This document shows positions 12,609 through 56,605 of a stretch of DNA of 64,000 nucleotides, one piece after another. Made by a program: the position numbers and the translations under genes. Positions within the stretch are counted from its first letter, which is position 1, and each line of letters starts with the position of its first letter. The notes under the pieces were generated by a model. It saw only the letters and a list, made by a program, of their open reading frames with translations, was not told the origin of the DNA and made no database searches. The stretch is taken from contig JAUNHV010000005.1 of the NCBI GenBank assembly GCA_030523725.1, positions 43,323 through 107,322 of the forward strand. The letters run 5' to 3'. Source of the stretch: Synergistaceae bacterium (lineage in GTDB: Bacteria; Synergistota; Synergistia; Synergistales; Synergistaceae).

Positions 12609-14456
<1,848 letters not shown>

Positions 14457-25548: not shown

Positions 25549-25629
25549 CAATAAATAAATAAATAATTTATTACACAGAGTGATTTTTATATAGCAATTT
25601 ATATTTTATGTTTACTAAGGAGAAAACAA

Positions 25630-28481: not shown

Positions 28482-28520
28482 CAGTATTGACAAAAAATAT
28501 AAAAATATGAGGGTAAAGTA

Positions 28521-36832: not shown

Positions 36833-37014
36833 TGTAGCACCCTCCAACTTAATTTTTGGTCATTATAACTTGTTTTGAAAGAAAAAACAATATATATACT
36901 AATAAATAAATTTGTAAATTTATCAATGTAGCAACTATGCATATAGAACAATCATGGTAATGCACAAAAATAATCCGTTCTCAACTGATGTCTTTTGTTG
37001 TTCTTCTAGCTAAT

Positions 37015-39951
37015 TTACTTTATCCTCTTCATAATATCCATCACATGCATATCAGGATTATCGGCATTTTGCGTAAGAAGGCAGGCAGTTTTGATGAACA
37101 TTTTTCTAAAATTATATATGGTTTCTTCCTTGTAAGCACAGGCGTTGTAATCCATATAGAGTTTGCAACCTTCATCGGTTTCGTGTATTTCCATATTCAA
37201 AAGGTTGTTGGCACAATCTGTTTCCGTTGGGATTTTTGCAATGGTAAATTGCAAGGAACCTTCTGCACAAATATTTCTTAAATTTCCTTGGTAAAGGACA
37301 GAGGCATCATCACTATCTTCACAGAAATGTTCCGGTCCTGGGTAAGGATAACATAAATAGCGAATATCATTATTGACCTGCTCTGCCACGTTTTTATATA
37401 AATTTGCTAGTGTTATTTTTTCGTCAAAGCATATGCCGACATACAAGTCACGCAAAAATGCAGCTATTACATGTTTTTCACTCAGCATAGCACGTCCATT
37501 ATGCACCCAAGACACTCTTATGTTCTTTGTTCCATTATATGTAGCTATTGCTATACATGCCACGGCAATAAAAAATGAATTTTTTCCTACACCATACTGT
37601 TTATGCATCTTTTCGTATGACTGCTCATCAAGTGGAATCATAACTTCCATATTTGCATAGCGGTTTTCCTTGGTTTCAAAATCCTGCGCAAGGCATATAT
37701 CCCAATTTATCCCATCAAATGTCTTTTTGTAATACTCGCGAGCTTCTTCATACAAGGGAGAATTGATTTGCTTTGCTCTGTCTTCAAGAGCTGCAAAATA
37801 ATAATTTGGCTCAAGGGGCTTTCCGTCATAGGCTCTGCTTATGTCCTCTATGAGTATGTGTAGCGAAGTGCCGTCTGCAACACTATTATGCAAATCGAAG
37901 AAGAGATAGCCGCCAATTTCTGTTTTGAAAAGACGAATCCTATAGAGTGATTTGTTTAACAACACAAAAGGCTTCACAAGCTGTTCACTTTCATCCACAA
38001 AGTCTGCTTCCGAAATTTCTTCGAGCTTTATATCAAATACCTTGTCCTTGTCATAATTTTGCACAAGCTCCGCAGTTTTGCTAAAGGCATATACAGACGA
38101 AAAAATCGGATGTGCAGCAAGTACAGTATCTACTGCTTTTTTTAGGCGCTCCATATCTGTGTCACGTCCAAACTTTAACAGCACTGGCATATTCCACACA
38201 GTGGAGTCAGGATAATAGCATTGATAGTCAAACATAAAAATCTGCTCTGCAGAAAGTGGCAAATTTTGTTTAGGCGCACGAGCGTTACGCTCGGCAAGGC
38301 TCTCTGTTTTACCATTGGTTGCCTTTTCATAGAGCTCTGCAATTTTTTTAGGGGTTCGCCCTGCCAAAAATATATTAACGTCGAGCTGATCTAAATTTAG
38401 TTTAGTAATGACCTGTATAGAGCTTATAGAATCTCCGCCAATTTCATAGAAGTCATCTTCAACACCAATTCTTTCGATACCAAGAACCGATGCAATAGCA
38501 CTGCAGAGTTTTTCTTCCATCTCGTTTGATGGTGCAACATAATCCTTAAAGTAGCTTTTGAAATCCGGTGCTGGAAGGTCATTTCTTTTGAATTTTCCGT
38601 TTGAGCTTACTGGAATTTTATCAATTTTTATGTAAAATGCCGGCACCATGTAGGGCACAAGTTTTTCACTGATAATTTTTTTTGCTTCCTCAATTGGTAA
38701 AACTGGTTCATCTATGTAGTAAGCACAGACGAAATTATTTTTCCCTTCAGTAAAGACTTTAACGCCAACCCACTCCGTACCAAGCACTTCTTTTACAGCA
38801 ACTTCAATTTCGGCAGGTTCAACCCTGTTGCCGTTTATTTTCACCATGTCGTCACTTCGGCCAAGTATTAAGAAATTACCATCTGGCAGAATTTTTGCCA
38901 TATCTCCGCTTCTCACATAACCATTTCTAAAGATGTCCGCATTCCTCTCTGACAAATTTAGGTAGCCTCTAAAATAAGGGTTACGGTAGCAAATCTCACC
39001 TACTTCACCATCTTCTACAGGGAAACCGTTTTCATTCATAAGGCAAACATTAGCTTCTTCGATAGTTGCTCTCCCCGACGGGACAGTTTCATAGCTCTTG
39101 TCAAGGAGAAAAGCCAGAAGCACAAGTCCTGACTCCGACAGTGCATACATATTGTAGGAGTCAATTCCCTCAAGGAAAAGTCCGTTTGCAGGCTCACCGC
39201 CCATAACAAGTTTTTTAATGCTCTTCGGCAATTTTGGCATGACACGGATAAGTGAGGGTGTAAAAAATCCTGTTGTAATCTGGTATTTATCCATGATATC
39301 CACGAGTATATTGGTGTTCTTCATCGTTTCTAGCGTTATAACTATCAAGCTTGCAGCAACATCTATCACAGCATGAAACAATATTACTGTAGCAGTAAAA
39401 TTAAGCGGTGTTAGCTGGACAACTCTATCGTCATGATTAAAGGTTGCTACCCCTTTGTGTTGCCATGATTTTACCGCAAGAAACTGTGTCCCATATTCGT
39501 GCATTACGCCCTTTGGATTTCCTGTTGTGCCAGATGTGTAAACAATATAGGAGAGGTCGTGGGGATTGGCTACTTTGTAGCCTTCTAGGACTTCACATTT
39601 CATCATTTCTTCAAACACATTTTCGTCAATGACTAACTTGCAATTAGCATCACGCTTGATAAATTCTCGCTTTTTTTCAGGATAATTTGTTTCAAGCATG
39701 ACATAAGCTGCTCCTGCTTTCCACACACCAACAAGTGTCACAAATGGTTTTGCACCACGTGGCAAAAGAATCATTACAACATCTTCCTTGCCAATGCCAC
39801 GCTCTGTGAGGTATCTATAAACCTTGCCAGAGGCAACATCAAGTTCGTGATATGTCAATGAAGTGTCTTTCGCAACATCTATTATTGCCGTGTGATTCGG
39901 GTATGCTGTACAATTTTCAGCAAATTTTTTAATAAGACTAAATTCTTCCAT
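37015..39951 (-). CDS. NRPS-like A-T-C protein 1 (last gene of the operon); C domain has HNxxxDG
   Basis: A-domain cores are LTYHEL, YTSGTTGNPKG, GEICYRNPYFRGYLN, YVRSGD, GRSDDMVKINGNRVEPAEIE, VPYMVP and NGKFKRNDLP. The carrier motif is FYEIGGDSIS. The condensation domain reads FFDLHNSVADGTS. I place the start at MEEFSLIKKF (ATG at 39951, after AGAGGGA). The 10-codon track extension overlaps the upstream gene. Confidence 0.85.
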   Translation of the reverse strand: MEEFSLIKKFAENCTAYPNHTAIIDVAKDTSLTYHELDVASGKVYRYLTERGIGKEDVVMILLPRGAKPFVTLVGVWKAGAAYVMLETNYPEKKREFIKRDANCKLVIDENVFEEMMKCEVLEGYKVANPHDLSYIVYTSGTTGNPKGVMHEYGTQFLAVKSWQHKGVATFNHDDRVVQLTPLNFTATVILFHAVIDVAASLIVITLETMKNTNILVDIMDKYQITTGFFTPSLIRVMPKLPKSIKKLVMGGEPANGLFLEGIDSYNMYALSESGLVLLAFLLDKSYETVPSGRATIEEANVCLMNENGFPVEDGEVGEICYRNPYFRGYLNLSERNADIFRNGYVRSGDMAKILPDGNFLILGRSDDMVKINGNRVEPAEIEVAVKEVLGTEWVGVKVFTEGKNNFVCAYYIDEPVLPIEEAKKIISEKLVPYMVPAFYIKIDKIPVSSNGKFKRNDLPAPDFKSYFKDYVAPSNEMEEKLCSAIASVLGIERIGVEDDFYEIGGDSISSIQVITKLNLDQLDVNIFLAGRTPKKIAELYEKATNGKTESLAERNARAPKQNLPLSAEQIFMFDYQCYYPDSTVWNMPVLLKFGRDTDMERLKKAVDTVLAAHPIFSSVYAFSKTAELVQNYDKDKVFDIKLEEISEADFVDESEQLVKPFVLLNKSLYRIRLFKTEIGGYLFFDLHNSVADGTSLHILIEDISRAYDGKPLEPNYYFAALEDRAKQINSPLYEEAREYYKKTFDGINWDICLAQDFETKENRYANMEVMIPLDEQSYEKMHKQYGVGKNSFFIAVACIAIATYNGTKNIRVSWVHNGRAMLSEKHVIAAFLRDLYVGICFDEKITLANLYKNVAEQVNNDIRYLCYPYPGPEHFCEDSDDASVLYQGNLRNICAEGSLQFTIAKIPTETDCANNLLNMEIHETDEGCKLYMDYNACAYKEETIYNFRKMFIKTACLLTQNADNPDMHVMDIMKRIK
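38825..39630. repeat. 806-bp block 100% identical to 41772-42577 (A-domain core of proteins 1 and 2)
   Basis: I compared the two stretches base by base at an offset of 2947 and found no mismatch. The flanks diverge: C/T at 38824 versus 41771, and G/A at 39631 versus 42578. Confidence 0.9.
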
Positions 39952-39964
39952 TTGTTTCCCTCTA

Positions 39965-42898
39965 CTATTTGCGGATTGCACTTATAATTTCCATTACCTT
40001 CATTTCGTGGTTCTCAATATGCTCCATCAAAAGGCATGCCGTTTTCATAAACATATTTTTGAATCGATTTATTGACTCCTTTTTATAGGCACTTGCATTG
40101 TATTTTAATTCAAGACAGCAACCGTCATCAATGTCCAAAATTTCGATATCAAGTAAATTATCACTATGGGCATTGTCTAGTGGTAAGGCAGAAAAAGTAT
40201 ATGCAAGCTCACCTTCACCCGAAAAACTTTCCAAGTCAGCTAAATAGTTAAGGTTAATATTTTTGTCTGCTGAAATGAGTAGCCACTCCGGCACATAGTA
40301 CGAATAATGTATATTATTACGCATTTGCTCAATCATATCAAGATATACATTTTCCAAAGTTTTTGTCTTGCTGAAACGCATCCCTACCCCAAAGCATTTA
40401 TATAAAAATCCAAACACACGTGCATTCATAGAATTTGTTCTACCATTGTGGATCCATGTCATTCTTACTTCGTCTCTCTCGTTATAGGCAGATACAGCAA
40501 TACAGGTTGCTACAATGAAAAAAGCATTTTTATTAAGACCATGCACCTTTTGCATTTTTTCATAACATTTTTCCTCAATTGGAATTTTGACATTCATGGT
40601 GCCTAATGTATGATCTTCTGTATCAAAGTCAACATTGAGATAAGGCAGCGTCTCATATCCTTTGAATAGATTGTCATAGTATTGCTTGGCTTCTTCATAC
40701 AATGGCGAATGAATCGTTCTTTGGTAATAATCTCGAACAGCAAAATAATAATCCGGTTCAATTGGTTTTCCATCATATACCTTAGTAATATCATCTAACA
40801 ATATATGTATTGAAGTGCCGTCTGAAATACTATGGTGAAAATTGCAGAAAAGATATCCTCCCCGTTCTGTCTTAAAAAGCCTTATTCTGTAAAGTGGCTT
40901 TTCCAAAAGATCAAATGGCTGGACAAGGCTTTTTTTCAGCGTTTCAAATTCTGCTTCTGTAATCTCCTCAATCTTTGTATCAAAAATTTTGTCAGGATTG
41001 AATCTTTGCACTGGCTCGTTATTTTTCCCCCATACATACATAGTTGAAAAAACAGGATGAGCTTTGAGCACGGTATCAAGTGCTTTTTTAAGACGCCCCA
41101 TATCAGTATTACGCCCAAATTTAAGAAGCGTCGGCAAATACCAAGCCAATGAATCTGGATAACTGCTTTGATAGTCAAACATAAAAATCTGCTCTGTAGA
41201 AAGTGGCAAATCTTTTTTTTGTGCTTGAGCATTTTGCTCCTCAAGACTCTCTGTTTTACTCTTTGCTGCTTCTTTGTAAAGTGCTGCTATTTTTCTTGCG
41301 GTGCGCCCTGCTAAAAACATATTAACGTCAAGCATATCCAGCTTCATTTGTGTAATAACTTTTATTACACAAATTGAGTCACCACCTATCTCATAAAAAT
41401 CATTCTCTACGCCAACACGCTCTATGCAAAGAACGGACGCCATAACCTGGCACAATTTTTCTTCCAGTTCGTTTGACGGTGCAACATATTCCTTTATATA
41501 ACTTTTGAAATCCGGTGCCGGCAAGTCATTTCTTTTGAATTTTCCGTTTGAGCTTACTGGAATTTTATCAATTTTTATGTAAAAGGCTGGAACCATGTAG
41601 GGCACAAGTTTCTCGCTAATAATCTTCTTTGCGTCCTCAATTGGTAAGACTGGTTCACCTATGTAGTAAGCACAAACGAAACTTTTTTGCCCTTCAGTGA
41701 AAATTCTAACGCCCACCCACTCCGTGCCGAGCACTTTCTTTACAGCAACTTCAATTTCAGCTGGCTCAACTCTGTTGCCGTTTATTTTCACCATGTCGTC
41801 ACTTCGGCCAAGTATTAAGAAATTACCATCTGGCAGAATTTTTGCCATATCTCCGCTTCTCACATAACCATTTCTAAAGATGTCCGCATTCCTCTCTGAC
41901 AAATTTAGGTAGCCTCTAAAATAAGGGTTACGGTAGCAAATCTCACCTACTTCACCATCTTCTACAGGGAAACCGTTTTCATTCATAAGGCAAACATTAG
42001 CTTCTTCGATAGTTGCTCTCCCCGACGGGACAGTTTCATAGCTCTTGTCAAGGAGAAAAGCCAGAAGCACAAGTCCTGACTCCGACAGTGCATACATATT
42101 GTAGGAGTCAATTCCCTCAAGGAAAAGTCCGTTTGCAGGCTCACCGCCCATAACAAGTTTTTTAATGCTCTTCGGCAATTTTGGCATGACACGGATAAGT
42201 GAGGGTGTAAAAAATCCTGTTGTAATCTGGTATTTATCCATGATATCCACGAGTATATTGGTGTTCTTCATCGTTTCTAGCGTTATAACTATCAAGCTTG
42301 CAGCAACATCTATCACAGCATGAAACAATATTACTGTAGCAGTAAAATTAAGCGGTGTTAGCTGGACAACTCTATCGTCATGATTAAAGGTTGCTACCCC
42401 TTTGTGTTGCCATGATTTTACCGCAAGAAACTGTGTCCCATATTCGTGCATTACGCCCTTTGGATTTCCTGTTGTGCCAGATGTGTAAACAATATAGGAG
42501 AGGTCGTGGGGATTGGCTACTTTGTAGCCTTCTAGGACTTCACATTTCATCATTTCTTCAAACACATTTTCGTCAATAACTAATTTGCAATTTGCGTCAC
42601 GCTTGATAAATTCTCGTTTTTCCGCTGGGTAATCTGTTTCAAGCATAACATAAGCTGCACCAGCTTTCCACACACCGACAATAGCAGCAAAAGGTTTTGC
42701 TCCACGTGGAAGAAGAATCATTATCACATCTTCCTTGCCTATGCCACGCTCTGTAAGGTATCTATATACCCTGCCGGAATACTCATCAAGCTCGTGATAT
42801 GTCATTGCTGTGTCTTTCGCAACATCTATTATTGCCGTGTGATTTGGGTGTGCTGTGCAATTTTCAGCAAATTTTTTAATAAGACTAAATTCTTCCAT
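39965..42898 (-). CDS. NRPS-like A-T-C protein 2
   Basis: The core motifs are the same. The carrier motif is FYEIGGDSIC and the C domain reads FHHSISDGTS. The A-domain core is identical to protein 1 over 806 bp. Confidence 0.85.
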   Translation of the reverse strand: MEEFSLIKKFAENCTAHPNHTAIIDVAKDTAMTYHELDEYSGRVYRYLTERGIGKEDVIMILLPRGAKPFAAIVGVWKAGAAYVMLETDYPAEKREFIKRDANCKLVIDENVFEEMMKCEVLEGYKVANPHDLSYIVYTSGTTGNPKGVMHEYGTQFLAVKSWQHKGVATFNHDDRVVQLTPLNFTATVILFHAVIDVAASLIVITLETMKNTNILVDIMDKYQITTGFFTPSLIRVMPKLPKSIKKLVMGGEPANGLFLEGIDSYNMYALSESGLVLLAFLLDKSYETVPSGRATIEEANVCLMNENGFPVEDGEVGEICYRNPYFRGYLNLSERNADIFRNGYVRSGDMAKILPDGNFLILGRSDDMVKINGNRVEPAEIEVAVKKVLGTEWVGVRIFTEGQKSFVCAYYIGEPVLPIEDAKKIISEKLVPYMVPAFYIKIDKIPVSSNGKFKRNDLPAPDFKSYIKEYVAPSNELEEKLCQVMASVLCIERVGVENDFYEIGGDSICVIKVITQMKLDMLDVNMFLAGRTARKIAALYKEAAKSKTESLEEQNAQAQKKDLPLSTEQIFMFDYQSSYPDSLAWYLPTLLKFGRNTDMGRLKKALDTVLKAHPVFSTMYVWGKNNEPVQRFNPDKIFDTKIEEITEAEFETLKKSLVQPFDLLEKPLYRIRLFKTERGGYLFCNFHHSISDGTSIHILLDDITKVYDGKPIEPDYYFAVRDYYQRTIHSPLYEEAKQYYDNLFKGYETLPYLNVDFDTEDHTLGTMNVKIPIEEKCYEKMQKVHGLNKNAFFIVATCIAVSAYNERDEVRMTWIHNGRTNSMNARVFGFLYKCFGVGMRFSKTKTLENVYLDMIEQMRNNIHYSYYVPEWLLISADKNINLNYLADLESFSGEGELAYTFSALPLDNAHSDNLLDIEILDIDDGCCLELKYNASAYKKESINRFKNMFMKTACLLMEHIENHEMKVMEIISAIRK
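41772..42577. repeat. Partner copy of the 806-bp identical block
   Basis: See 38825-39630. The identical shadow ORFs in the track (39036..39245 = 41983..42192; 39444..39632 = 42391..42579) confirm it. Confidence 0.9.
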
Positions 42899-42980
42899 TT
42901 GCTTTTTATCCCCTTTTCATAACTAATTACTTCGAACTTTACAAGTAGAGCCCCTGCTTTGCATCATAGTGGTCGATTTT

Positions 42981-45923
42981 TCACTTTATCCTCTTTATAA
43001 TATCCATCATACACATATCAGGATTATCGACATTTTGTGCAAGGGCACAGGCTGCCTTAATAAACATTTCCTTGAAACGCTCCATGCTCTCTTTTTTATA
43101 CACGCTCGCATTATAATCCATATAAAGCTTGCACCCTTCGTTTGTTTCGTGTATTTCAACATCCAACAAATTGTCAGCACCGTCTGCCTGCCCTGGCAGT
43201 TCTGCCACAGTGAAATTCAAACTTCCTTCTGCTTCAAGGCTACGCAAATTTGACTGATATATTAGATTTACATCACCATGGTTTTTTATTGCATCTTCTA
43301 TGCTAGGATAAGAACAACATGCATATTTGACATTATTCCTCACCTGTCTTGCTGTCTCTTCCAGCAATGCCCCAAGTGTTTTTAGTTCATCAAAATGAAG
43401 TCCAACGTAAAAATAGTTAAGAAGTTCTCCAACTGCATGCTGTGCACTCACTGCGTCTCGTCCATTGTAAATCCATCCTACCCTGATGTTGCTCGACTCA
43501 TTATAGATGGACATGGCCACGGCTGTTACTGCAATAAAAAATGCATTTTTCCCAAGTCCATAGATCTCTCGCATTTTTTCATAATATGCAGAATCAAGTG
43601 GTATCATTGCTGTCATGTTGCCGTATGTATTTTCTTGTGTATCAAAATCGGACTTTAGGCGTGCATCCCATTCATATTTTTTTATGGAATTATTGTAATA
43701 CTCCTTGCCTTCTTCACGCAAAGGAGAGGCCTGGCTTTTCTTTTGGTCGTCCAAGAAAACAAAATAATAATCTGGCTCTAGTGGCTTTCCGTCATAAGCA
43801 AGACATATATCATTCTTTAGGACATGTATGGAAGTTCCATCAACTATGCTGTGATGAAAATCCATAAAAAGGTATCCACCACACTCAGTGCGAAAAAGGC
43901 GAACTCTAAACATAGGCTTATTAAGAAGCTCGAAAGGTCTAACAAAATTTTTGCTTTCTTTTGCAAAATCTGCCTCGGATATTTCTTCAATCTTTGTATC
44001 AAAAATCTTGTTTGCATCATATTTTTGCACAAGCTGTTTTTCTGCATTATAGGCAAAAACGATTGAAAACATTGGATGCACTTTAAGTGCGATATCAACT
44101 GCTTTTTTTAGACGTTCCACATCTGTGTCACGTCCAAACTTTAAAAGCATTGAAACATTCCACATAGTGGAATCTGGATAACGTAATTGATAATCTATGA
44201 CATATTGTTGCTGTATTGAAATGGGGTGGTCCTTTGTTAATTCCAAAGCATTACGCTCATCAAGACTCTTTACGCCTTCTTTAGTGGCTTCTTCGTAAAG
44301 CTTTGCTATTTTTGCCGGAGTGCGCCCAACAAAAAGAGTATTCACATCAAGCTGAGGCAAATTTAGTTTAGTAATGACTTTTATTGCATTTACAGAATCT
44401 CCACCAATTTCATAAAAATCATCTGTTACACCAACACGTTCAAGCTCCAAAACCGATGCCATGACCTGGCACAATTTTTCTTCCAGTTCGTTTGACGGTG
44501 CCACATATTCTTTTATGTAACTTTTGAAATCCGGTGCTGGCAGGTCGTTTCTCTTGAATTTTCCATTTGCATTCACTGGAATTTTATCAATCTTTATGTA
44601 AAAGGCTGGAACCATATAGGGCACAAGTTTCTCGCTAATAATTTTCTTTGCTTCCTCAATTGGTAAAACAGGTTCACCTATGTAGTAAGCACAAACAAAA
44701 CTTTTTTGTCCTTCAGTGAAAATTCTAACGCCAACCCATTCCGTGCCAAGCACATGCTTTACAGCAACTTCAATTTCAGCTGGCTCAACTCTGTTGCCGT
44801 TTATTTTCACCATATCATCAGTTCTGCCAAGGACTAGAAAATTGCCATCCGGCAGAATTTTTGCCATATCACCACTTCTAACATAACCCTTTCTAAAGAC
44901 GCTTGCATTCTTCTCCGGCAAATTCAAATAGCCTCTAAAATAAGGGTTATGGTAACAGATTTCTCCAACTTCACCATCCTTGACAAGGTTGCCATTTTCA
45001 TCCTGTATGCAAATATCCATCTCCGGCACAGTAGGTTTACCCGCCGGTGCTTTTTCGTAAGCTTTGTCTAATTTAAAAATCAGTATGGAAGTACCCGATT
45101 CAGACTGACCATATCTACCATAAACATCACAACCTTCGTAATACACGTTATTTACTGGCTCTGCACCGACTAACACAGTTTTAACGCATTCAGGTATTTT
45201 TGGAATCAACCTTAAATGTGAAGTAGTGAAAAAAGCAACCGTTACCTTATATTCGTTTATCACAGCCAAAACACGTTCAATATTTCTCACATCTGACAAT
45301 GGAAGCACAATAATGGTAGCACAAGCATACATCACTGTGTGAAATGTCATTATAGTTGCGGTAAAATTTAATGGCGCCATAAGAGTAGTTATGTCACCGT
45401 AACTAAAAATAGCCTTACCACCATACTTACGCCTTGCTCCTTTTGCAACAAGAGACTGCGTCCCATATTCGTGCATAACTCCCTTTGGATTTCCTGTGGT
45501 GCCGGAAGTGTAAACAATATAGGAGAGGTCGTGGGGATTAGCGACCCTGTAGCCTTCTAGGACTTCACATTTCATCATTTCTTCAAACACATTTTCGTCA
45601 ATGACTAATTTGCAATTTGCATCACGCTTGATAAATTCTCGTTTTTGCTCTGGATATTCCACCTCAAGCATAACGTATGCTGCTCCGGCTTTCCACACGC
45701 CAACAACCGTTACAAAAGGCTTTGCACCACGTGGCAAAAGAATCATTACAACGTCTTCCTTGCCAATGCCACGCTCTGTGAGGTATCTATATACCCTGCC
45801 AGAGGCAACATCAAGCTCGTGATAGGACATTGAAGTGTCTTTCGCAACATCTATTATTGCCGTGTAATTCGGATGTGCTGCACAATCTTCAGCAAATTTT
45901 TTAATAAGACTAAATTCTTCCAT
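42981..45923 (-). CDS. NRPS-like A-T-C protein 3
   Basis: Motifs are YTSGTTGNPKG, GEICYHNPYFRGYLN, GRTDDMVKINGNRVEPAEIE and NGKFKRNDLP. The carrier motif is FYEIGGDSVN. The C domain reads FHHSIVDGTS. Confidence 0.85.
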   Translation of the reverse strand: MEEFSLIKKFAEDCAAHPNYTAIIDVAKDTSMSYHELDVASGRVYRYLTERGIGKEDVVMILLPRGAKPFVTVVGVWKAGAAYVMLEVEYPEQKREFIKRDANCKLVIDENVFEEMMKCEVLEGYRVANPHDLSYIVYTSGTTGNPKGVMHEYGTQSLVAKGARRKYGGKAIFSYGDITTLMAPLNFTATIMTFHTVMYACATIIVLPLSDVRNIERVLAVINEYKVTVAFFTTSHLRLIPKIPECVKTVLVGAEPVNNVYYEGCDVYGRYGQSESGTSILIFKLDKAYEKAPAGKPTVPEMDICIQDENGNLVKDGEVGEICYHNPYFRGYLNLPEKNASVFRKGYVRSGDMAKILPDGNFLVLGRTDDMVKINGNRVEPAEIEVAVKHVLGTEWVGVRIFTEGQKSFVCAYYIGEPVLPIEEAKKIISEKLVPYMVPAFYIKIDKIPVNANGKFKRNDLPAPDFKSYIKEYVAPSNELEEKLCQVMASVLELERVGVTDDFYEIGGDSVNAIKVITKLNLPQLDVNTLFVGRTPAKIAKLYEEATKEGVKSLDERNALELTKDHPISIQQQYVIDYQLRYPDSTMWNVSMLLKFGRDTDVERLKKAVDIALKVHPMFSIVFAYNAEKQLVQKYDANKIFDTKIEEISEADFAKESKNFVRPFELLNKPMFRVRLFRTECGGYLFMDFHHSIVDGTSIHVLKNDICLAYDGKPLEPDYYFVFLDDQKKSQASPLREEGKEYYNNSIKKYEWDARLKSDFDTQENTYGNMTAMIPLDSAYYEKMREIYGLGKNAFFIAVTAVAMSIYNESSNIRVGWIYNGRDAVSAQHAVGELLNYFYVGLHFDELKTLGALLEETARQVRNNVKYACCSYPSIEDAIKNHGDVNLIYQSNLRSLEAEGSLNFTVAELPGQADGADNLLDVEIHETNEGCKLYMDYNASVYKKESMERFKEMFIKAACALAQNVDNPDMCMMDIIKRIK

Positions 45924-46003
45924 TTGCTTTTAAGCCCCTTTCATTTAATAACTCACTTCGCTCTCTACAACTAGAGCCTCTACTTTGTCAATGTTCTTTT
46001 TTA

Positions 46004-48937: not shown

Positions 48938-48950
48938 TTGTTTCCCTCTA

Positions 48951-50336
48951 CTATTTGCGGATTGCACTTATAATTTCCATTACCTTCATTTCGTGGTTCT
49001 CAATATGTTCCATCAAAAGGCATGCTGTTTTCATAAACATATTTTTGAATCGATTTATTGATTCCTTTTTATAGGCACTAGCGTTGTATTTTAATTCAAG
49101 AAAGCAGCCATCATCAATGTCAGAAACTTCAATTTCAAGCAGATTATCTGCTTGGTCAACGTCCGCAGATAATACAGAAACGGTATATGAAAGACCCTCT
49201 TTATGTGCAAAATCTCTTAGATATTTCAGATCCTTCAGATAGTTAAAATTTGCAACTCCTTTCTCCTCGGGACGCAGCTCACGCCCTGGATATGGAAAAC
49301 AAGAATAATGTTTATTATTATGTATTTGCTCTTTCACCTCGCGATAAAGATTACTAAGTGTTTTTGTATCATCAAAACAAAGACCAACTGGATAGCATTG
49401 ATACATAAAACCAAACACAGATTTTTCCACAAATGTGTGTCTGCCGTTATGAATCCAGGTTAATAGAGCAGCGTCTTTTTCGTTATATGCAGAAAGCACA
49501 AAACAAGATACGATAATGAAAAACGCATTTTTATTGAGCCCATGCACCCTCTGCATCTGCTCATAAAAACTTTCTGCAATTGGGATCATTTCACGTATAG
49601 TTCCGAGTGGATTATCATTGGGTTTCATGTCAATTTTAAGGCGAGGTGGCATCGCCTTCTCGTAGCCTTCAAACAACTTGTCGTAATATTTTCTCCCCTC
49701 TTCAAACCTTGAAGAATGCATCAAACCTTGACGATAATCCATAGCAGCGAAATAGTAATCTGGCTTAAGAGGCTTTCCCTCATACGCGTCACATATATCA
49801 TTAAAAAATATATATCTTGAAACTCCGTCAACAATACTATGATGGAAATCGCAGAAAAGATATTCTCCTTTTTCCGTCTTGAAAAGTCTTAATCTGTAAA
49901 GTGGTTTTTCAAGCATTTCAAAGGGGCGAACAAGTCCTCTTTTTATTGTTTCAAGTTCTGCTTCTGTTACTTCCTCTACAGTGGTGTCAAATTTCTTATT
50001 TGGGACATATCTTTGCACAGGCTCATCGCCTTTTAACAAATATATAACTGAAAAGACTGGATGTGTAGCAAGCACAGTGTCAACTGCTTTTTTGAGGCGT
50101 GCAATGTCTGTATTACAGCCAAATTTAACTAACAGAGGAACATTCCAGCTAATAGAATCTGGGTAATCGAGCTGATATTTGAGCAGCAATGACTGCCAAA
50201 ATGAAAGAGGAGCATCCATTTTTTGCAGGCATGCATTACGCTCGGCAAGCCCTTCTGTCTCCCCTGCTTCCCTTTGCTTACAAAGATGTGTTTCACAATT
50301 TTCACTGAATTTTTTATTAAGGCTAAATTCTTCCAT
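48951..50336 (-). CDS. Free-standing condensation-domain protein (A and T domains missing)
   Basis: The product is 461 aa. The C domain reads FHHSIVDGVS. The N-terminal 14 aa, MEEFSLNKKFSENC, mimic the start of the A-T-C paralogues. The last 39 aa are identical to those of protein 2. Confidence 0.85.
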   Translation of the reverse strand: MEEFSLNKKFSENCETHLCKQREAGETEGLAERNACLQKMDAPLSFWQSLLLKYQLDYPDSISWNVPLLVKFGCNTDIARLKKAVDTVLATHPVFSVIYLLKGDEPVQRYVPNKKFDTTVEEVTEAELETIKRGLVRPFEMLEKPLYRLRLFKTEKGEYLFCDFHHSIVDGVSRYIFFNDICDAYEGKPLKPDYYFAAMDYRQGLMHSSRFEEGRKYYDKLFEGYEKAMPPRLKIDMKPNDNPLGTIREMIPIAESFYEQMQRVHGLNKNAFFIIVSCFVLSAYNEKDAALLTWIHNGRHTFVEKSVFGFMYQCYPVGLCFDDTKTLSNLYREVKEQIHNNKHYSCFPYPGRELRPEEKGVANFNYLKDLKYLRDFAHKEGLSYTVSVLSADVDQADNLLEIEVSDIDDGCFLELKYNASAYKKESINRFKNMFMKTACLLMEHIENHEMKVMEIISAIRK

Positions 50337-50387
50337 TTCTCCTAAAGTCCCTTCTTTATTATGAGTTATTTCAGATTAAACAAATCA

Positions 50388-51653
50388 CTAATCAACTAAT
50401 GCTGGGTTTTCCACAACAACCCATGGCAAACCGAATTTGTTTAGCATTTCCATATACGGATCAGGATCAAATTCATCCGTGGTCTTTGCTCCCCTCGCAT
50501 TCCAAACTCCACTTACAATTAGTGCTGCGCCAATCATTGCCGGCACGCCAGCCGTATAGCTTATGGCTTGGCTGCCCACTTCCTTGTAACATTCTTGATG
50601 GTCACAGACATTGTAAATGTATAGCGTGCGTTCCTTGCCGTCTTTTTTACCACGGAAAATGCAACCAATGTTTGTTTTGCCAATTGTGCGTGGTCCAAGA
50701 GTTGCAGGGTCGGGCAAGAGAGTTTGCAAAAACAGGATTGGCACAATTGGAACTCCGTTATACATTACAGGCTCTGTACCCAACATTCCAACGTTTTCAA
50801 GACACTTCAAGTGAGTCAGGTAACTTTGGGTAAACGTCATAAAGAAACGAATGCGCTTTATCTCTGGAAAATTTCTTCCAAGTGATTCTGTTTCTTCGTG
50901 ATGTATCAGATACATATCTCTCTTTCCAATACAAGGAAAATCATATTCACGCTTAATGCTCATTGCGGGAACCTCTACCCAATGACCATCTTCCCAATAA
51001 CTACCAAGATCAGAAACTTCGCGAAGGTTTACTTCAGGATTATAATTTGTTGCAAAGGGGTAACCATGGTCTCCCCCGTTGCAATCCAAAATATCAAGCT
51101 CATCAATCGTATCAAAATAATATTTTTTTGCATAGGTTACGAACACACTTGTTACACCGGGGTCAAAACCTGAACCTAATAATGCTGTTAAATTTGCCTT
51201 TTTGAAACGCTCGTCATAAGCCCATTGCCATGAGTAATCAAAATAAGCGGAAAGGATTGAGCCTGAATACCTCTCTTTACGCATTTTGCTCCATGCAGGA
51301 TCATTCATATCTTCTGATTCATAGCATGCTGTGTCAACGTAATGGACACCACACTCAAGACAGGCATCCATTATTGTTAAATTTTGGTAAGGAAGAGCTA
51401 AATTCAAAACACAGTCGGGCTTATAACTTTTAATCAGTGCTACTAATTCTTGTAGGTTACCCGCATCTACCTGTGCTGTTGTAACCTTTGTATGTGAGGT
51501 ACCAGCTCGCTCTATTTTTTCTTTTAATGCATCACACTTTGATTTTGTCCTACTTGCAATACAAAGTTCCTTGAAAACTTCATCATTTTGACAGCATTTT
51601 TGAATTGCAACCTGTGCAACTCCACCACAACCTACAACTAATAACCTAGACAT
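50388..51653 (-). CDS. Saccharopine-dehydrogenase-family enzyme, carboxy(nor)spermidine dehydrogenase-like
   Basis: The N-terminal Rossmann fold is MSRLLVVGCGGVAQVAIQKCCQ. It is followed by ELCIASRTKSKCDALKEKI. At ~420 aa, this pattern matches CANSDH/CASDH enzymes as I recall them. The ATG at 51653 lies 7 nt after GAGGAGGG. The track start at 51713 adds 20 aa. Confidence 0.65.
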   Translation of the reverse strand: MSRLLVVGCGGVAQVAIQKCCQNDEVFKELCIASRTKSKCDALKEKIERAGTSHTKVTTAQVDAGNLQELVALIKSYKPDCVLNLALPYQNLTIMDACLECGVHYVDTACYESEDMNDPAWSKMRKERYSGSILSAYFDYSWQWAYDERFKKANLTALLGSGFDPGVTSVFVTYAKKYYFDTIDELDILDCNGGDHGYPFATNYNPEVNLREVSDLGSYWEDGHWVEVPAMSIKREYDFPCIGKRDMYLIHHEETESLGRNFPEIKRIRFFMTFTQSYLTHLKCLENVGMLGTEPVMYNGVPIVPILFLQTLLPDPATLGPRTIGKTNIGCIFRGKKDGKERTLYIYNVCDHQECYKEVGSQAISYTAGVPAMIGAALIVSGVWNARGAKTTDEFDPDPYMEMLNKFGLPWVVVENPALVD

Positions 51654-51752
51654 TATTTTGCCCTCCTCTATATTGTGTGGTAAAAATTTTTTAGTGGGAT
51701 TGTTTTCCTCCATCGGTTAATACTTTTTTAAGGCATTGCCCCGATGTTTAAC

Positions 51753-54689
51753 TTACTGTATCCTCTCCATAACATCCATCACGCAGATATTAGGATTATC
51801 GACATTTCGTGCAAGAGCACAAGCTGTTTTGATGAACATTTTTCTGAAGCGGTATATGCTTTCTTCCTTGTATGCACAAGCATTATAGTCCATATAAAGT
51901 TTGCAACCTTCATCTGTTTCATGTATTTCTACATCCAATAAATTGTCAGCACAATCCGTTTCTGTTGGTATTTCAGCAACGGTGAATTGCAAGGAACCTT
52001 CTGCGCAAATATCTCTTAAATTTGCTTGATACATGACATCAACATCGTCACTTTCTGCATATACATCTCCCGCTTCTGGATAGGGATAGCATGAATACCG
52101 GATGTCATTCTTAACTTGCTCTGACACCTCTTTGCATAGGCCTTCAAGCGTTAATTTATCGTCAAAACGAATTCCAACGTATAAAACACGCAGGAGTGCA
52201 CCAATCACATTATTCTCACTCACCATTGTACGCCCGTTATGCACCCATGACACCCTTACATTGTTTGTTTTGTTATATGCTGCCATTGCCACACAGGTTA
52301 CCGCAATAAAAAACGCATTTTTCCCTACGCCATATTTTTTCCGTATCTTTTCGTATGACAGTTCGTCAAGTGGAATCATAACTTCCATATTTGCATAACG
52401 GTTTTCCTTTGTTTCAACATCTGGCTTAAGAAAAGTATCCCACTTATGCTGTTTTAAAGTTCTTTCATAATACTGCCGCCCTTCTTCATACAAGGAAGAA
52501 TTAATTTGTTTTGCACGGTCTTCAAAAGCAGCAAAGTAGAAATCAGGCTCAAGCGGTTTCCCATCATAAGCCTTGCAAATATCACCTAAGAATATGTGTA
52601 ACGAAGTACCGTCTGCAATGATATGATGTATGTCAAAAAAGAGGTAGCCACCAATTTCTGTCTTAAAAAGACGAAGCCTGTAGAGTGGCTCGTTCAGCAA
52701 AATAAAAGGCTTCACAAGCTGTTCGCTTTCATCCACAAAATCCGCTTCAGAAATTTCTTCAAGCTTTACGTCAAACTCCTTCTCCGGATCGTAGTTTAGC
52801 ACAAGCTCCGCAGTTTTACTAAAGGCAAATACAGATGAAAAAATCGGGTGAGCAGCAAGCACTGTATCCACTGCCTTTTTGAGACGCACCATATCTGTAT
52901 CACGTCCAAACTTTAAAAGCACTGGTATATTCCACAAGGTGGAGTAGGGATAATTACATTGATAGTCAAACATAAAGATCTGCTCTGTAGAAAGTGGCAA
53001 ATCTTGTTTTGGTGCACGTGCGTTACGCTCAGCAAGGCTCTCAGCTTTACCATTGGTCGCCTTTTCATAGAGCTTTGCAATTTTTTTGGGGGTTCGTCCT
53101 GTTAAAAATATATTAACGTCAAGCTGGTCTAAATTCAACTGAGAAATGACCTTTATCGTGCTTACCGAATCTCCACCAATTTCATAGAAATCATCTTCAA
53201 CACCCATTCTTTCAATACCAAGAGCAAATGCCATGGTGCTGCACAATCTTTCTTCCATTTCGTTTGACGGCGCAACATATTCCTTTATGTAGCTCTTAAA
53301 ATCTGGCGCCGGGAGGTCATTTCTCCTGAATTTTCCATTTGCATTCACTGGAATTTTATCAATTTTTATGTAAAAAGCTGGCACCATATAGGGCACAAGT
53401 TTCTCGCTAATAATCTTCTTTGCGTCCTCAATTGGTAAAACTGGTTCACCTATGTAGTAAGCACAAACAAAACTTTTTTGCTCTTCAGTAAAAACTCGAA
53501 CGCCGACCCACTCCGTGCCAAGCACTTTCTTTACAGCAACTTCAATTTCGGCTGGCTCAACTCTGTTGCCATTTATTTTGACCATATCATCAATTCTGCC
53601 AAGGACTAAAAAATTGCCATCTGGCAGAACTTTTGCCATGTCACCACTTCTCACATAGCCTTTTCTAAAGATGCTTGCATTCTTCTCCGGCAAATTCAAG
53701 TAGCCTCTAAAATAAGGATTGTGGTAACAAATTTCACCAACTTCACCATCCTTGACAAGGTTGCCATTTTCATCCTGTATGCAAATATCCATCTCTGGCA
53801 CAGTAGGTTTACCCGCCGGTGCTTTTTCGTATGATTTATCTAATTTGAAAGTCAGTATTGAAGTTCCAGATTCAGATTGACCATATCTGCAATAAATGTC
53901 ATATCCTTCGCAATACACATTATTGGCAGGTTCTGCCCCACTAATTATCTTTTTAACACTTTCTGGAAATTTTGGGATTAGCCTTAAAGACGATGGGGTA
54001 AAGAAAACGAGTGTAATTTTATACTTGTTAATGACTGAAAAAATGCGTTCGATGTTTCTAGCGTCTGCCAAAGCAAGCACAATCATAGTCGAGCAGGCAT
54101 CTATTACAGTGTGAAACATCATTATGGTCGCAGTAAAACTTAATGGGGCGGTAAGGAGAGCTCTGTCTTCGTGGGTAAAGGTAGCTTCGCCATTATATGT
54201 AGCTCCTTTTATAACAAAAAGCTGTGTCCCATATTCATGCATAACGCCCTTTGGATTTCCTGTTGTGCCAGATGTGTAAACAATGTACGAGAGGTCGTGG
54301 GGATCGGCTACTTTGTAGCCTTCTAGGACTTCACATTTCATCATTTCTTCAAATACATTTTCATCAATGACTAACTTGCAATTTGCGTCACGCTTGATAA
54401 ATTCTCGCTTTTCCGCTGGATAATTTGCCTCAAGCATAACATATGCTGCTCCTGCTTTCCACACACCAACAACCGTCACAAAAGGCTTTGCACCACGTGG
54501 CAAAAGAATCATTACAACGTCTTCCTTACCAATGCCACGCTCTGTGAGATATCTATAAACCCTGCCAGAGGCAACATCAAGCTCGTGATATGTCATTGCT
54601 GTGTCTTTCGCAACATCTAATATTGCCGTGTGATTTGGGTGTGCTGCACAATTTTCAGCAAATTTTTTAATAAGACTAAATTCTTCCAT
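51753..54689 (-). CDS. NRPS-like A-T-C protein 5
   Basis: Motifs are YTSGTTGNPKG, GEICYHNPYFRGYLN, GRIDDMVKINGNRVEPAEIE and NGKFRRNDLP. The carrier motif is FYEIGGDSVS. The C domain reads FFDIHHIIADGTS. Confidence 0.85.
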   Translation of the reverse strand: MEEFSLIKKFAENCAAHPNHTAILDVAKDTAMTYHELDVASGRVYRYLTERGIGKEDVVMILLPRGAKPFVTVVGVWKAGAAYVMLEANYPAEKREFIKRDANCKLVIDENVFEEMMKCEVLEGYKVADPHDLSYIVYTSGTTGNPKGVMHEYGTQLFVIKGATYNGEATFTHEDRALLTAPLSFTATIMMFHTVIDACSTMIVLALADARNIERIFSVINKYKITLVFFTPSSLRLIPKFPESVKKIISGAEPANNVYCEGYDIYCRYGQSESGTSILTFKLDKSYEKAPAGKPTVPEMDICIQDENGNLVKDGEVGEICYHNPYFRGYLNLPEKNASIFRKGYVRSGDMAKVLPDGNFLVLGRIDDMVKINGNRVEPAEIEVAVKKVLGTEWVGVRVFTEEQKSFVCAYYIGEPVLPIEDAKKIISEKLVPYMVPAFYIKIDKIPVNANGKFRRNDLPAPDFKSYIKEYVAPSNEMEERLCSTMAFALGIERMGVEDDFYEIGGDSVSTIKVISQLNLDQLDVNIFLTGRTPKKIAKLYEKATNGKAESLAERNARAPKQDLPLSTEQIFMFDYQCNYPYSTLWNIPVLLKFGRDTDMVRLKKAVDTVLAAHPIFSSVFAFSKTAELVLNYDPEKEFDVKLEEISEADFVDESEQLVKPFILLNEPLYRLRLFKTEIGGYLFFDIHHIIADGTSLHIFLGDICKAYDGKPLEPDFYFAAFEDRAKQINSSLYEEGRQYYERTLKQHKWDTFLKPDVETKENRYANMEVMIPLDELSYEKIRKKYGVGKNAFFIAVTCVAMAAYNKTNNVRVSWVHNGRTMVSENNVIGALLRVLYVGIRFDDKLTLEGLCKEVSEQVKNDIRYSCYPYPEAGDVYAESDDVDVMYQANLRDICAEGSLQFTVAEIPTETDCADNLLDVEIHETDEGCKLYMDYNACAYKEESIYRFRKMFIKTACALARNVDNPNICVMDVMERIQ

Positions 54690-54719
54690 TTGCTTTTAAG
54701 CCCCCTTATTTTATCTTTC

Positions 54720-55286
54720 TTATAGTTTGCTCTTGATAGCTTCCTTCGCCTGAGCTAACAAAGCTTTAGTGTCAACCCCAATGATGTCAAGATTTTCCAC
54801 CTTAAACATCTGAGTTTCTTTTATGCCGAATTGATTTAACGCAAGTCCTCTAATGTAACCATATCCAAAAGCATCATCAAAAATTATACCGCCGGCGGTG
54901 GTTACGTAATAGAGCTTTTTTGCTTTGCACAACCCAACACACGATCCATCTTCTGTGTATTCAAATGTTAGCCCACATACAGATATGGTTTCTACATACT
55001 TTTTCAACACAGCAGGAAACGAACCATCCCAATAAGGGGCAGCTATAACAATTATGTCTGCATCTAAAAACTGCTTTGCGTAGTTGAAGTATGAATCAGA
55101 AAAATTGTGCTCCTCGCAAAATTTTGTGCGTTCCTCAAGTCTTTTTTTATCAAGCGGTGCAATGTCTTCGTCACGTAACACAAGATGCGTCACATCGCCT
55201 TCCAGTTTGCTTATGAGATATTCTGCCAATTCTCTCGTTCGTGAATTTTCTCTTACAGTTGCATCTAAAAACAATATTTTTTTCAT
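54720..55286 (-). CDS. Flavodoxin-fold NAD(P)H-dependent oxidoreductase (AzoR/AcpD-like)
   Basis: The product is 188 aa. It contains MKKILFLDATVRENSRTRELAEY...IVIAAPYWDGSFPAVLKKYVE. It is the first gene of the co-directional block, 30 nt upstream of A-T-C protein 5. Confidence 0.65.
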   Translation of the reverse strand: MKKILFLDATVRENSRTRELAEYLISKLEGDVTHLVLRDEDIAPLDKKRLEERTKFCEEHNFSDSYFNYAKQFLDADIIVIAAPYWDGSFPAVLKKYVETISVCGLTFEYTEDGSCVGLCKAKKLYYVTTAGGIIFDDAFGYGYIRGLALNQFGIKETQMFKVENLDIIGVDTKALLAQAKEAIKSKL

Positions 55287-55354: not shown

Positions 55355-56605
55355 TTATAGCAACCCTTGATTAAGCAGAAATTGCTTAATGCCTACAATT
55401 ATGATTCCATCCTCGGTTCTGCGTGGTTTTTTGTCCTCTCGCACCACGATTATTTTTGTAAACGAATCAAGAATGTTGTGCAGAGATTTTTCTTCCTGCT
55501 CTTGTTTGTCTTGTGTGCCGATTGTGAAGGCAGATTGAATGTAATATTTCTGGTTGCCTTTTGTTGCAACAAAATCTACTTCGTAATTTCTCTTTGTTTT
55601 TTGACCACTTTTTTCATCACGCCCATAAAGCTGAATTATTCCTACATCAACGTGAAACCCACGGTAACGCAGCTCATTATAAATAATATTTTCCATTATG
55701 TGATTTTCTTCTGTTTGACGAAAGTTGAGTCTTGCATTGCGAAGCCCCACATCTTCAAAATAATATTTTACAGGAGAACCAATATATTTTTTCCCCTTAA
55801 TGTCAAAACGAATAGCCTTGCTCACGATAAAGGCATCACAAAGATATTCAAGATATTTTGTAATTGTTACATCGCTTATTGTTTTATTTTTTCTGCTTTT
55901 AAAGGTTTTTGAAAGTTTTACGGGATTAGTAAGGGAACCGACGGCAGATGCCAAGAAGTCTATTAACTCATTAAATTCTGCAACATTACGAATATAATGC
56001 CGCTCCATTATATCAGTGAGGTAGAGTTCCTTAAAAAGCATTAAGAGGTATTCTTCCTTTTCCTCTGGTAACTCTTTTGTAAGGACAAGGGGCAGTCCAC
56101 CATAGTAAAAATAATCATTCCAAGCCTCACCTATATCACCACCATATGCAGTTACAAATTCGCTAAATGAAAGGGGCAACATGTGAATTTCGTCACCCCT
56201 GCCACGAAATTCCGTAACAACATCACTGGATAGAAATTTAGAGTTACTCCCAGTGACATAAACGTCTACATTGCTTATGTGTAAAAAACCGTTGAGCACA
56301 TCAACAAAATTCTCAAGCAACTGAACCTCATCCAAAATTACATAATAAGGCTCGTTGTCAACAATTTGCTTTTCCACATATTCAAACATAGTTTTTGCTT
56401 GGCGTAAATCGCTGTATTTGATGTCGTCAAGTGCAACTTCAATAATGTGATCCTGTTTTACACCCTTGTCTAACAAATATTGATGAAACAGTGTGAAAAG
56501 AAGATATGACTTTCCGCACCTGCGAAGCCCAGTAACAATTTTTATCAAGCCGTTATGTTGACGGCGGATAAGTTTATTCAGATACACGTCACGTTTTATT
56601 TGCAT
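55355..56605 (-). CDS. AAA-family ATPase with DUF4143-type C-terminal region
   Basis: Walker A is TGLRRCGKSYLL and Walker B-like is VILDEVQ. The 416-aa length and layout fit the AAA_14/DUF4143 family. Confidence 0.7.
   Translation of the reverse strand: MQIKRDVYLNKLIRRQHNGLIKIVTGLRRCGKSYLLFTLFHQYLLDKGVKQDHIIEVALDDIKYSDLRQAKTMFEYVEKQIVDNEPYYVILDEVQLLENFVDVLNGFLHISNVDVYVTGSNSKFLSSDVVTEFRGRGDEIHMLPLSFSEFVTAYGGDIGEAWNDYFYYGGLPLVLTKELPEEKEEYLLMLFKELYLTDIMERHYIRNVAEFNELIDFLASAVGSLTNPVKLSKTFKSRKNKTISDVTITKYLEYLCDAFIVSKAIRFDIKGKKYIGSPVKYYFEDVGLRNARLNFRQTEENHIMENIIYNELRYRGFHVDVGIIQLYGRDEKSGQKTKRNYEVDFVATKGNQKYYIQSAFTIGTQDKQEQEEKSLHNILDSFTKIIVVREDKKPRRTEDGIIIVGIKQFLLNQGLL

Follow-up and report, generated by a model that had tools for sequence, protein, structure and literature searches.

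Condensation (C) domains of nonribosomal peptide synthetases (NRPSs) can use soluble amines as acceptors, as VibH of the vibriobactin pathway does with norspermidine. In that pathway VibE, VibB and VibH acylate norspermidine, and the polyamine itself comes from the carboxynorspermidine dehydrogenase/decarboxylase route. Single-module NRPSs are known from systems of the rhabdopeptide/xenortide type, in which promiscuously docking enzymes produce peptide libraries. In gut Clostridia, the OaaA/OaaACP/OaaC proteins join free amines to an acyl group held as a carrier thioester (PMC13310621), the glidonin C domain adds putrescine (PMC10587159), and TybD of the Lactobacillus iners tyrocitabine cluster, an adenylation–peptidyl carrier protein–condensation (A-PCP-C) enzyme, is reported to O-acylate the ribose hydroxyls of a free metabolite (Patel et al. 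2022, summarized in PMC13235161). Here, we analyzed a stretch of 64,000 nucleotides (nt) from a Synergistaceae bacterium (contig JAUNHV010000005.1; hereafter the window), which carries an NRPS-like locus of eight genes at positions 37015–55286: five stand-alone proteins made up of adenylation (A), carrier (T) and C domains (A-T-C; ATC1–ATC5), a C-only protein, a dehydrogenase and a reductase. The systems above provide precedents for the kind of chemistry expected of such proteins, in which A-T-C enzymes or separate A, T and C proteins pass an acyl group to a free acceptor, while the ATC family itself is uncharacterized.

On balance, we lean towards reading the locus as an array of tandem, recombining genes for NRPS-like acyl-transfer enzymes, each a single module that works autonomously, and not as one assembly line. 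Its products would then probably be a set of small acylated amines or alcohols, and not a single peptide of five units. Each ATC would adenylate a carboxylic acid, likely one that is not an alpha-amino acid, and load it onto its own phosphopantetheinyl carrier, with the phosphopantetheinyl transferase (PPTase) supplied in trans. The C domain would then pass the acyl group to a free amine or hydroxyl, not to a carrier-bound acceptor, yielding an amide or ester without a thioesterase (TE). Differing C domains would select differing acceptors, giving a small matrix of acid-by-acceptor products, and the dehydrogenase may supply an acceptor of the polyamine type. Domain content, motifs, mosaic structure, the solo occurrence of relatives and the variation between related assemblies are observed directly, whereas we infer which class of substrate is used, that the acceptor is free and that the enzymes act in parallel. 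Parallel, autonomous action is suggested because relatives occur as solo genes, no code for order is present, the aspartate that binds the alpha-amino group is missing, and the gene order varies.

All eight genes lie on the minus strand and run in one direction. The unit begins with an AzoR-like flavodoxin-fold FMN reductase (54720–55286), followed by ATC1 (51753–54689; 978 amino acids, aa), a 421-aa carboxy(nor)spermidine dehydrogenase homologue (50388–51653), the 461-aa C-only protein (48951–50336), ATC2 (46004–48937; 977 aa), ATC3 (42981–45923; 980 aa), ATC4 (39965–42898; 977 aa) and ATC5 (37015–39951; 978 aa). The list of open reading frames (ORFs) and the Pfam searches confirmed this gene set as given in the initial annotation, whose shorter gene starts also proved better; the dehydrogenase start at 51653 (MSRLLVVGCGG) coincides with residue 1 of PDB 4rl6. 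The intergenic gaps are 30, 99, 51, 13, 80, 82 and 13 nt. The tight packing originally described therefore stands, although the range of 13–80 nt was slightly narrow, the measured one being 13–99 nt.

The AMP-binding (E 1e-52 to 1e-58), PP-binding and Condensation (E 1e-33 to 1e-46) domains of Pfam were found in all five ATCs, PP-binding being over the Pfam cut-off in each, and Condensation was the only domain in the C-only protein (E 2e-45). The C-terminal domains are thus Condensation domains, as the initial annotation had them, and the adenylation and carrier motifs that it quoted were found in the sequences. All five A domains carry the core motifs A3 (YTSGTTGxPKG), A5 (xYGxxE), A7 (Y/VRxGD), A8 (GRxDDxVKIxGxRVE) and A10 (NGK), and the carrier serine lies in a GGSS motif in ATC2 and in GGDS in the other four paralogues. 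The AlphaFold2 model of ATC1 (pLDDT 86.7) had the A-T-C portion of LgrA as its top fold match (Foldseek E 4e-74), which was also the best match of the ATCs by sequence among solved structures. Among window ORFs of at least 120 aa there was no TE, reductive (R) release domain, PPTase or second-module gene, and no MbtH motif was present in those of at least 50 aa; the absence of these functions, and of any multimodule protein, had been reported before and was reproduced in the ORF and Pfam scans. Likewise, no characterized pathway with this gene content was found in the literature searched, in keeping with the original failure to match the locus to one, and neither was a characterized member of the ATC family. 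Promoter and terminator scans gave counts at the level of shuffled sequence (64 vs. 58 ± 7 and 14 vs. 14, respectively) and were uninformative on operon structure.

Among proteins that share this architecture, TybD offers the closest precedent in function. Like TybD, the ATCs are stand-alone three-domain proteins of a host-associated anaerobe that end without a TE or downstream module, and they would similarly transfer an acid to a free small molecule. TybD is one tailoring enzyme, however, compared to five tandem paralogues here, and the two are likened by architecture and not by sequence. The Pfam scans of the window showed none of the tyb-type partners, the tRNA-synthetase-like TybB and the Amadori synthase TybC. 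The Oaa system resembles the proposed scheme in its steps (adenylation, carrier loading and condensation by a C domain with a freely diffusing amine) and in its gut microbiome setting, but uses three separate proteins where the ATCs are fused. No chain named OaaC occurred among the solved-structure matches at E ≤ 0.01. The LgrA alignment extends over ≈940 residues of the A-T-C portion in modules 1–2, with an E-value of 1e-140 summed over stretches and an identity of 23–28%. In LgrA, the C domain passes the chain to the attached next module, whereas the ATC proteins end after the C domain.

The second difference from LgrA lies in the substrate pocket. Pocket codes were read by aligning the A domains to GrsA-PheA; the residue numbers of this reference are consistent with one another, and a separate HMMER alignment to LgrA gave the same result. 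The codes fall into three classes: ATC1 (TAMFIGRTSK) and ATC3 (TAMFLGRTSK), which have an Arg in the pocket; ATC2 (VAMFVGCSLK); and ATC4 and ATC5, whose pockets are identical (TAIFVGMLVK). At the position of the alpha-amino-binding Asp (D235 in GrsA, D396 in LgrA), the five paralogues have Thr or Val, with Thr opposite LgrA D396 in the HMMER alignment, and all 118 of the 118 full-length family members examined have Thr, Val, Ala, Ser or Ile. Because the Asp that binds the alpha-amino group is replaced, the substrates of the family are probably carboxylic acids other than alpha-amino acids. ATC1 and ATC3 may bind an anionic group. The abundant gut clade of the family has a very hydrophobic code (VAIFFGIFAK), and closer relatives often have a Lys or Arg at the seventh code position. 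No catechol or aryl-acid code was seen in the ATC A domains, and none of the codes is known to match a described one with confidence; a tentative resemblance to fungal anthranilate or arylpyruvate codes was given no weight.

Metagenomes commonly contain stand-alone A-T-C enzymes of this family, and gut anaerobes are the source of many. Of 8000 candidates from a word-index search, 1630 proteins had E ≤ 1e-10, and a single cluster at 90% identity held 208 sequences. Seven distinct relatives with 39–57% identity were single genes with no other NRPS module nearby, in unrelated neighborhoods. One adjoins M20 peptidase and amidohydrolase genes, one restriction genes, and one dnaJ and the trigger factor gene; another overlaps, and is translationally coupled to, a gene for a MatE exporter, and a further one (P0028) follows an Acyl_transf_3 gene. 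In the gut Firmicute clade, the most abundant (39% identity; L001–L003, ≈9694–14658), the A-T-C gene lies between genes for a 98-aa STAS protein and a type-B carboxylesterase of 554 aa, to which it is translationally coupled, and the A-T-C proteins end in a basic amphipathic tail (...NFFETVKGVFSRKK). The remaining A-T-C gene, with 49% identity (P0020; L020, 8913–17650), is part of a run with a dlt-like envelope-acylation set, consisting of ATPgrasp_ST, an 81-aa PP-binding carrier, an AlgX/DHHW-like protein, MBOAT and a 504-aa DltA-like ligase. Because the relatives are solo genes without an NRPS partner nearby, each ATC enzyme is probably autonomous. An enzyme that acts on its own has to draw on a nucleophile other than one it has loaded.

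The STAS, MatE and Acyl_transf_3 genes found near the array in a sister assembly (L010, described below) each recur in other ATC contexts in this small sample, and L001 and L010 each have a large neighboring gene, a carboxylesterase in L001 and DUF3089 in L010.

The termini of the proteins bear on how the enzymes might cooperate. Residues 1–14 are near-invariant among the paralogues, and only about eight residues precede the A domain. The conserved C-terminal tail, which the initial annotation had suggested could be a docking helix, is common to the paralogues and their solo homologues and corresponds to helices 942–961 and 970–977 of the model, the last two of the C domain. An array-specific docking helix was rejected on this basis, and no COM-type docking extensions that would specify order were found. 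With near-invariant termini, an N-terminus of about eight residues and a tail present in solo homologues, the proteins hold no docking code for order.

This matters for the first of two models put forward originally, a split assembly line in which protein n would use its C domain for condensation onto the T domain of protein n + 1, joining four to five units that are released by the variant last C domain. The genes are tight and co-directional, as would suit such a line, the HHxxxDG motif is canonical, the degenerate last C domain is under purifying selection and could have a special terminal role, and promiscuously docking single-module NRPSs that make peptide libraries do exist. However, the relatives are solo genes, the A domain starts at about residue 8 with no N-terminal docking extension, and near-identical termini cannot encode order. 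Without the alpha-amino-binding Asp, most units may have no nucleophile for extension, and the putative release domain, the C domain of ATC5, lacks the catalytic His. Gene order and number also vary between assemblies; the gene after ATC3 in L018, for instance, encodes an N-terminus resembling that of ATC4 and a T-C region like that of ATC5. We consider the split line quite unlikely. The general idea of the second model, enzymes that act in parallel on a soluble acceptor, fits better.

The C domains of the ATC family are only distantly related to solved ones, the best of 26 matches at E ≤ 0.01 being to BacC (E 2e-15) and TycC6 (3e-12). An assignment of C-domain subtype through these structures was tried and abandoned: at E 2e-15 and weaker, C domains of the LCL type and epimerization (E) domains were mixed, and no subtype was justified. 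In an exhaustive search of representative sequences, the C domains had 29–47% identity to A-T-C proteins of ≈1000 aa, compared to 21–30% to the C domains of multimodular NRPSs. The initial annotation listed HHxxxDG for each A-T-C protein; the motif is intact in five of the six C domains: ATC1 (HHIIADG), ATC2, ATC3 and the C-only protein (all HHSIVDG), and ATC4 (HHSISDG). In ATC5 the motif has degenerated to HNSVADG, and the orthologue P0002 from another sample has YNSIADG, showing that the catalytic second His was lost in this lineage. Comparison of the ATC5 and P0002 C domains gave a dN/dS of 0.15. Because it is under purifying selection, the His-less C domain appears to be maintained for some function, either non-canonical or structural.

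Several observations weigh against an array of autonomous enzymes with free acceptors. The HHxxxDG motif has been linked to carrier-dependent C domains, while the C domains of the free-amine fatty-acid-amide (FAA) clade have (D/H)HxxxDS and stand apart from their A and carrier proteins (PMC13310621). The ATCs have fused domains and the canonical HHxxxDG. ATC5 cannot simply follow the proposed acyl-transfer scheme, since its catalytic His is lost. Loss of the Asp at position 235 is also compatible with beta- or omega-amino acids. The 81-aa carrier encoded beside the A-T-C gene in L020 makes a carrier-bound acceptor possible for some members of the family, and the solo occurrence of distant relatives is no proof that tandem copies act independently.

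The identity among the five ATCs is 58–76% overall, ATC2 being the most divergent, but is very uneven along the genes. A-domain residues 1–150 and 311–478 are 83–95% identical among all copies (dS 0.25–0.87). Between these flanks, residues ≈155–310, which hold the specificity pocket, are 36–50% identical between classes, with dS saturated. The C domains, also saturated in dS, are 46–57% identical, except for ATC1 and ATC5 (76%). ATC4 and ATC5 share an exact tract of 806 nt that covers the pocket (aa 108–376; minus strand, 41772–42577 in ATC4 and 38825–39630 in ATC5), yet their C domains are 49% identical. Conversely, ATC1 and ATC5, with their similar C domains, have pockets that are 46% identical.

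Orthologues from other samples show the same modularity. P0004, the orthologue of ATC4, is 100% identical to it in the T domain and 99% in the C domain, but only 44% in the pocket; P0002, the orthologue of ATC5, is 90% identical in T, 93% in C and 43–44% in the pocket. The replacement pockets of P0002 and P0004 are 98% identical to each other. Because both proteins keep T and C and carry a different pocket, a pocket cassette of roughly 155 residues is exchanged as a unit and stays alike in the two final genes of the array. In P0002, moreover, an N-terminus like that of ATC4 (97%) is joined to the ATC5-like T-C region, and its gene lies directly after ATC3 in L018, the outcome that would be expected of unequal crossing-over between ATC4 and ATC5 in the shared tract. 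The array would thus evolve by duplication, unequal crossing-over in the homogenized A-domain flanks and exchange of pocket cassettes. Natural swapping of A-domain subdomains or pockets is known in NRPS evolution, for example from hormaomycin and from surveys of recombination in cyanobacteria. There, likewise, the segment between A3 and A6 is exchanged between nearly identical flanks. Here, in contrast, the paralogues that exchange the segment are single-module enzymes encoded in tandem, two neighboring genes have undergone the exchange in parallel, and the pocket is alike within a genome and unlike between related genomes.

The junctions of the array recur in other assemblies at 86–98% nt identity, five of them having been reproduced. 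L022 has ATC1 (98%), the dehydrogenase (97%) and the C-only gene (97%) in this order; in L009 and L018, the 3′ end of ATC3 (97–98%) is followed by another ATC gene; and in L008 an ATC4-like gene (86%) is followed by another ATC start. Fragments orthologous to ATC3, with 97–99% identity, are present in L009, L010 and L018. In L010, the reductase gene (96%) lies directly before an ATC gene that matches ATC3 at 99% identity over its first 447 residues, which suggests that the block from ATC1 through the dehydrogenase and C-only genes to ATC2 is absent from that assembly, whose contig ends inside this ATC gene. The junctions from the C-only gene to ATC2 and from ATC2 to ATC3 were seen in the window assembly alone. 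Two tandem ATC genes with ≈65% identity were also found in an unrelated sample (L019).

The nt homology between L010 and the window begins at the start codon of the reductase; upstream of it, L010 (117–7188) encodes DUF3089 (967 aa), STAS, a HATPase_c_2 anti-sigma-type kinase, MatE and Acyl_transf_3. The homology of L018 to the window ends at the ATC5 stop codon. With homology bounded at these two points, the conserved unit is the reductase plus the ATC array, and the flanks and internal composition change between related assemblies. The reductase, which alone among the non-ATC genes remains with the array where the flanks differ, matches the Pfam families FMN_red and Flavodoxin_2 (90 bits vs. 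a cut-off of 27 for the latter). Its best solved relatives are FMN-dependent NADH azoreductases (E 3.5e-14), and it falls below the NCBIfam azoreductase cut-offs. Two contig scans added little: genome contigs searched with patterns of the five paralogues (VFEEMMK and MEEFSLIK, which were too specific) gave one sister Synergistaceae assembly and unrelated ligases, and metagenome contigs searched with generic patterns (YTSGTTG) from a 32-sequence alignment gave NRPS or ligase relatives of at most 30% identity and one fragment of 41%.

We considered the possibility that the array is a chimera of fewer genes created during assembly, or a set of functionless, decaying pseudogenes. The sequence is a metagenome-assembled genome (MAG), ATC4 and ATC5 share the exact 806-nt repeat, one copy has no A-T region and a 153-nt remnant of another is present in L022. 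However, the five long ORFs are intact, with dN/dS values of 0.05–0.20 among copies and among orthologues, P0002 and P0004 repeat the pattern of a shared pocket, and the array as a whole is not an assembly artefact, because other assemblies reproduce its junctions. An artefact, which the initial annotation had named as a finding that would overturn it, was therefore not borne out, and we regard artefact or decay as exceedingly improbable.

The C-only protein begins with residues 1–17 of an ATC A domain (MEEFSLNKKFSENCETH) and then continues from about residue 540 onward, with HHSIVDG retained. Its gene encodes the same last 40 residues as ATC4, and an identical 13-nt spacer (TAGAGGGAAACAA) follows both genes (48938–48950 after the C-only gene and 39952–39964 after ATC4); a single tract of duplication or conversion therefore runs from the end of the gene through the spacer into the start of the following one. 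By its sequence, the C-only protein is an in-frame A-T deletion derivative of an ATC paralogue and not a separate lineage, contrary to the idea of a dedicated, VibH-like free C domain. In L022, the space from the dehydrogenase to the C-only gene holds a 153-nt remnant of an ATC C domain (2551–2703; residues ≈891–944, 87% identical to ATC5), which is missing at the corresponding position 50372 of the window. With the deletion product and this remnant near the dehydrogenase, its surroundings are a zone of ATC rearrangement. The likeness to VibH would be that of a C domain with a soluble polyamine acceptor that comes from a dehydrogenase/decarboxylase route. VibH, however, is a dedicated, free-standing C domain that works with an aryl carrier protein, and no VibH chain was present among the 26 solved-structure matches at E ≤ 0.01.

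The embedded dehydrogenase was correctly recognized from the start as related to carboxynorspermidine dehydrogenases. The protein aligns from end to end with PDB 4rl6 (E 3e-210), also matches 8deb, a carboxyspermidine dehydrogenase of the Bacteroides type (E 1.7e-145), and contains both saccharopine-dehydrogenase domains of Pfam (Sacchrp_dh_NADP and Sacchrp_dh_C; E 3e-31 and 4e-40). Its score against the NCBIfam carboxynorspermidine synthase model NF043000 was 383 bits, below the equivalog cut-off of 800. Orthologues with 86–87% identity occur in other Synergistaceae MAGs, and with 77% in Lachnospiraceae. Given these close orthologues in its own family, it has the look of the polyamine enzyme that is usual for the lineage.

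Whether this enzyme serves the array was central to the second of the original models, which proposed a polyamine scaffold: the dehydrogenase would make carboxy(nor)spermidine, and the ATCs and the C-only protein would acylate its amino groups to give poly-acylated polyamines. The model is compatible with the array of autonomous enzymes that we favor, of which it is one particular form. The close homology to solved carboxyspermidine dehydrogenases is in line with such a role, as is the co-directional position of the gene within the array (at gaps of 99 and 51 nt), and the order of ATC1, dehydrogenase and free C domain is repeated in L022, where the dehydrogenase also lies inside the array. C domains that act on polyamines as free amines are established, with VibH and norspermidine and with the glidonin C domain and putrescine. 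No carboxyspermidine decarboxylase was found within the 64-kb window; if none acts, the carboxylated intermediate itself could be the acceptor. Against this stands the ordinary look of the enzyme for its lineage. Moreover, L010 has the reductase directly before an ATC3-like gene with the block missing, the dehydrogenase is a neighbor in none of the seven solo relatives, and the ATC deletion remnants around it suggest that it was entrapped by chance during rearrangement. A functional link from the dehydrogenase to a polyamine or carboxypolyamine acceptor, drawn from gene position, is plausible but unproven and doubtful, and poly-acylated polyamines as the products are to be doubted in equal measure.

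A role in modification of the cell envelope, in which the acyl thioesters or their conjugates are handed to membrane acyltransferases that decorate surface glycans or lipids in a Dlt-like manner, was also weighed. It is brought to mind by P0020, in one run with the 81-aa carrier, AlgX/DHHW-like, MBOAT and DltA-like genes, by the Acyl_transf_3 gene that adjoins the reductase-ATC unit in L010 and the one just upstream of P0028, and by the basic amphipathic tail in the abundant gut clade. However, no membrane acyltransferase adjoins the array itself, the nearest Acyl_transf_3 gene being at 24385–25548, inside the ilv cluster. The MatE exporters seen in two contexts speak instead for secretion of a small molecule, envelope genes are absent from most of the solo contexts, and the co-occurrences are few. 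We find an envelope role improbable.

ATC1 is 100% identical to P0001 of a Synergistaceae MAG. The host is therefore a diderm member of the Synergistota and not the owner of a diderm Firmicute-like chromosome, as was first thought. Nor does the array sit among housekeeping genes: its nearest flanks are accessory, and the dnaK and ilv operons are 10–25 kb away. Upstream, on the minus strand, are two adjacent AAA_14/DUF4143 ATPases (55355–56605 and 56816–58159), both of which match the PADLOC candidate defence family PDC-S01 (E about 1e-114 and 1e-110) and are missing at the equivalent position in L010; PADLOC gave no defence-system match for an ATC protein or the reductase. Directly downstream (36180–36847, minus strand), ORFs of 112 and 110 aa overlap by 4 nt, the former with a weak match to Phd/YefM antitoxins (E 8e-4, below the cut-off), and together they look like a toxin-antitoxin pair.

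Farther out, an ORF of 1890 aa (58322–63994, minus strand) had no Pfam or NCBIfam match and lies in a region of strongly negative AT skew (−0.19 to −0.28). Defence and mobile-type genes are clustered at 140–10905 and 19283–20278 (HEPN, Eco57I-type and N6_N4 methylases, 23S rRNA IVP, ResIII-endonuclease, RhuM and Fic), and a second RhuM-Fic fusion adjoins a tRNA-Pro gene (18985–19063). The ilv set (ilvN-like, ilvC, a TPP enzyme and ilvD; 20978–27297), which is split by the Acyl_transf_3 membrane acyltransferase gene mentioned above, is followed by two tandem Metallophos paralogues (27312–29687).

A bolder reading would make the array a combinatorial generator of undescribed acylated (carboxy)polyamines or related amides in the Synergistota, built on a scaffold made by the dehydrogenase. 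Swappable acid-selecting cassettes combined with divergent acceptor-selecting C domains would yield the matrix of products, and the His-less C domain of ATC5 and the C-only protein, which lacks A-T, would act in trans as a complementary pair. We think this unlikely; if it were true, the solo genes in gut Lachnospiraceae and Ruminococcus would represent a widespread, unrecognized route to amide and ester metabolites.

The array is a ready-made domain-swap experiment and an entry point for assigning donor and acceptor specificity. The informative sets are ATC4 and ATC5, with one pocket and two C domains, ATC1 and ATC5, with similar C domains and two pockets, and P0002 and P0004, in which the pocket has been replaced. 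In our view, these swap pairs mark the points at which a cassette of the A domain can be traded while the enzyme keeps its function. Should every ATC be a self-contained ligase for an acid and an acceptor, the family would be a sizeable unexplored source of amides and esters in the microbiome, comparable to the fatty-acid-amide and tyrocitabine systems.

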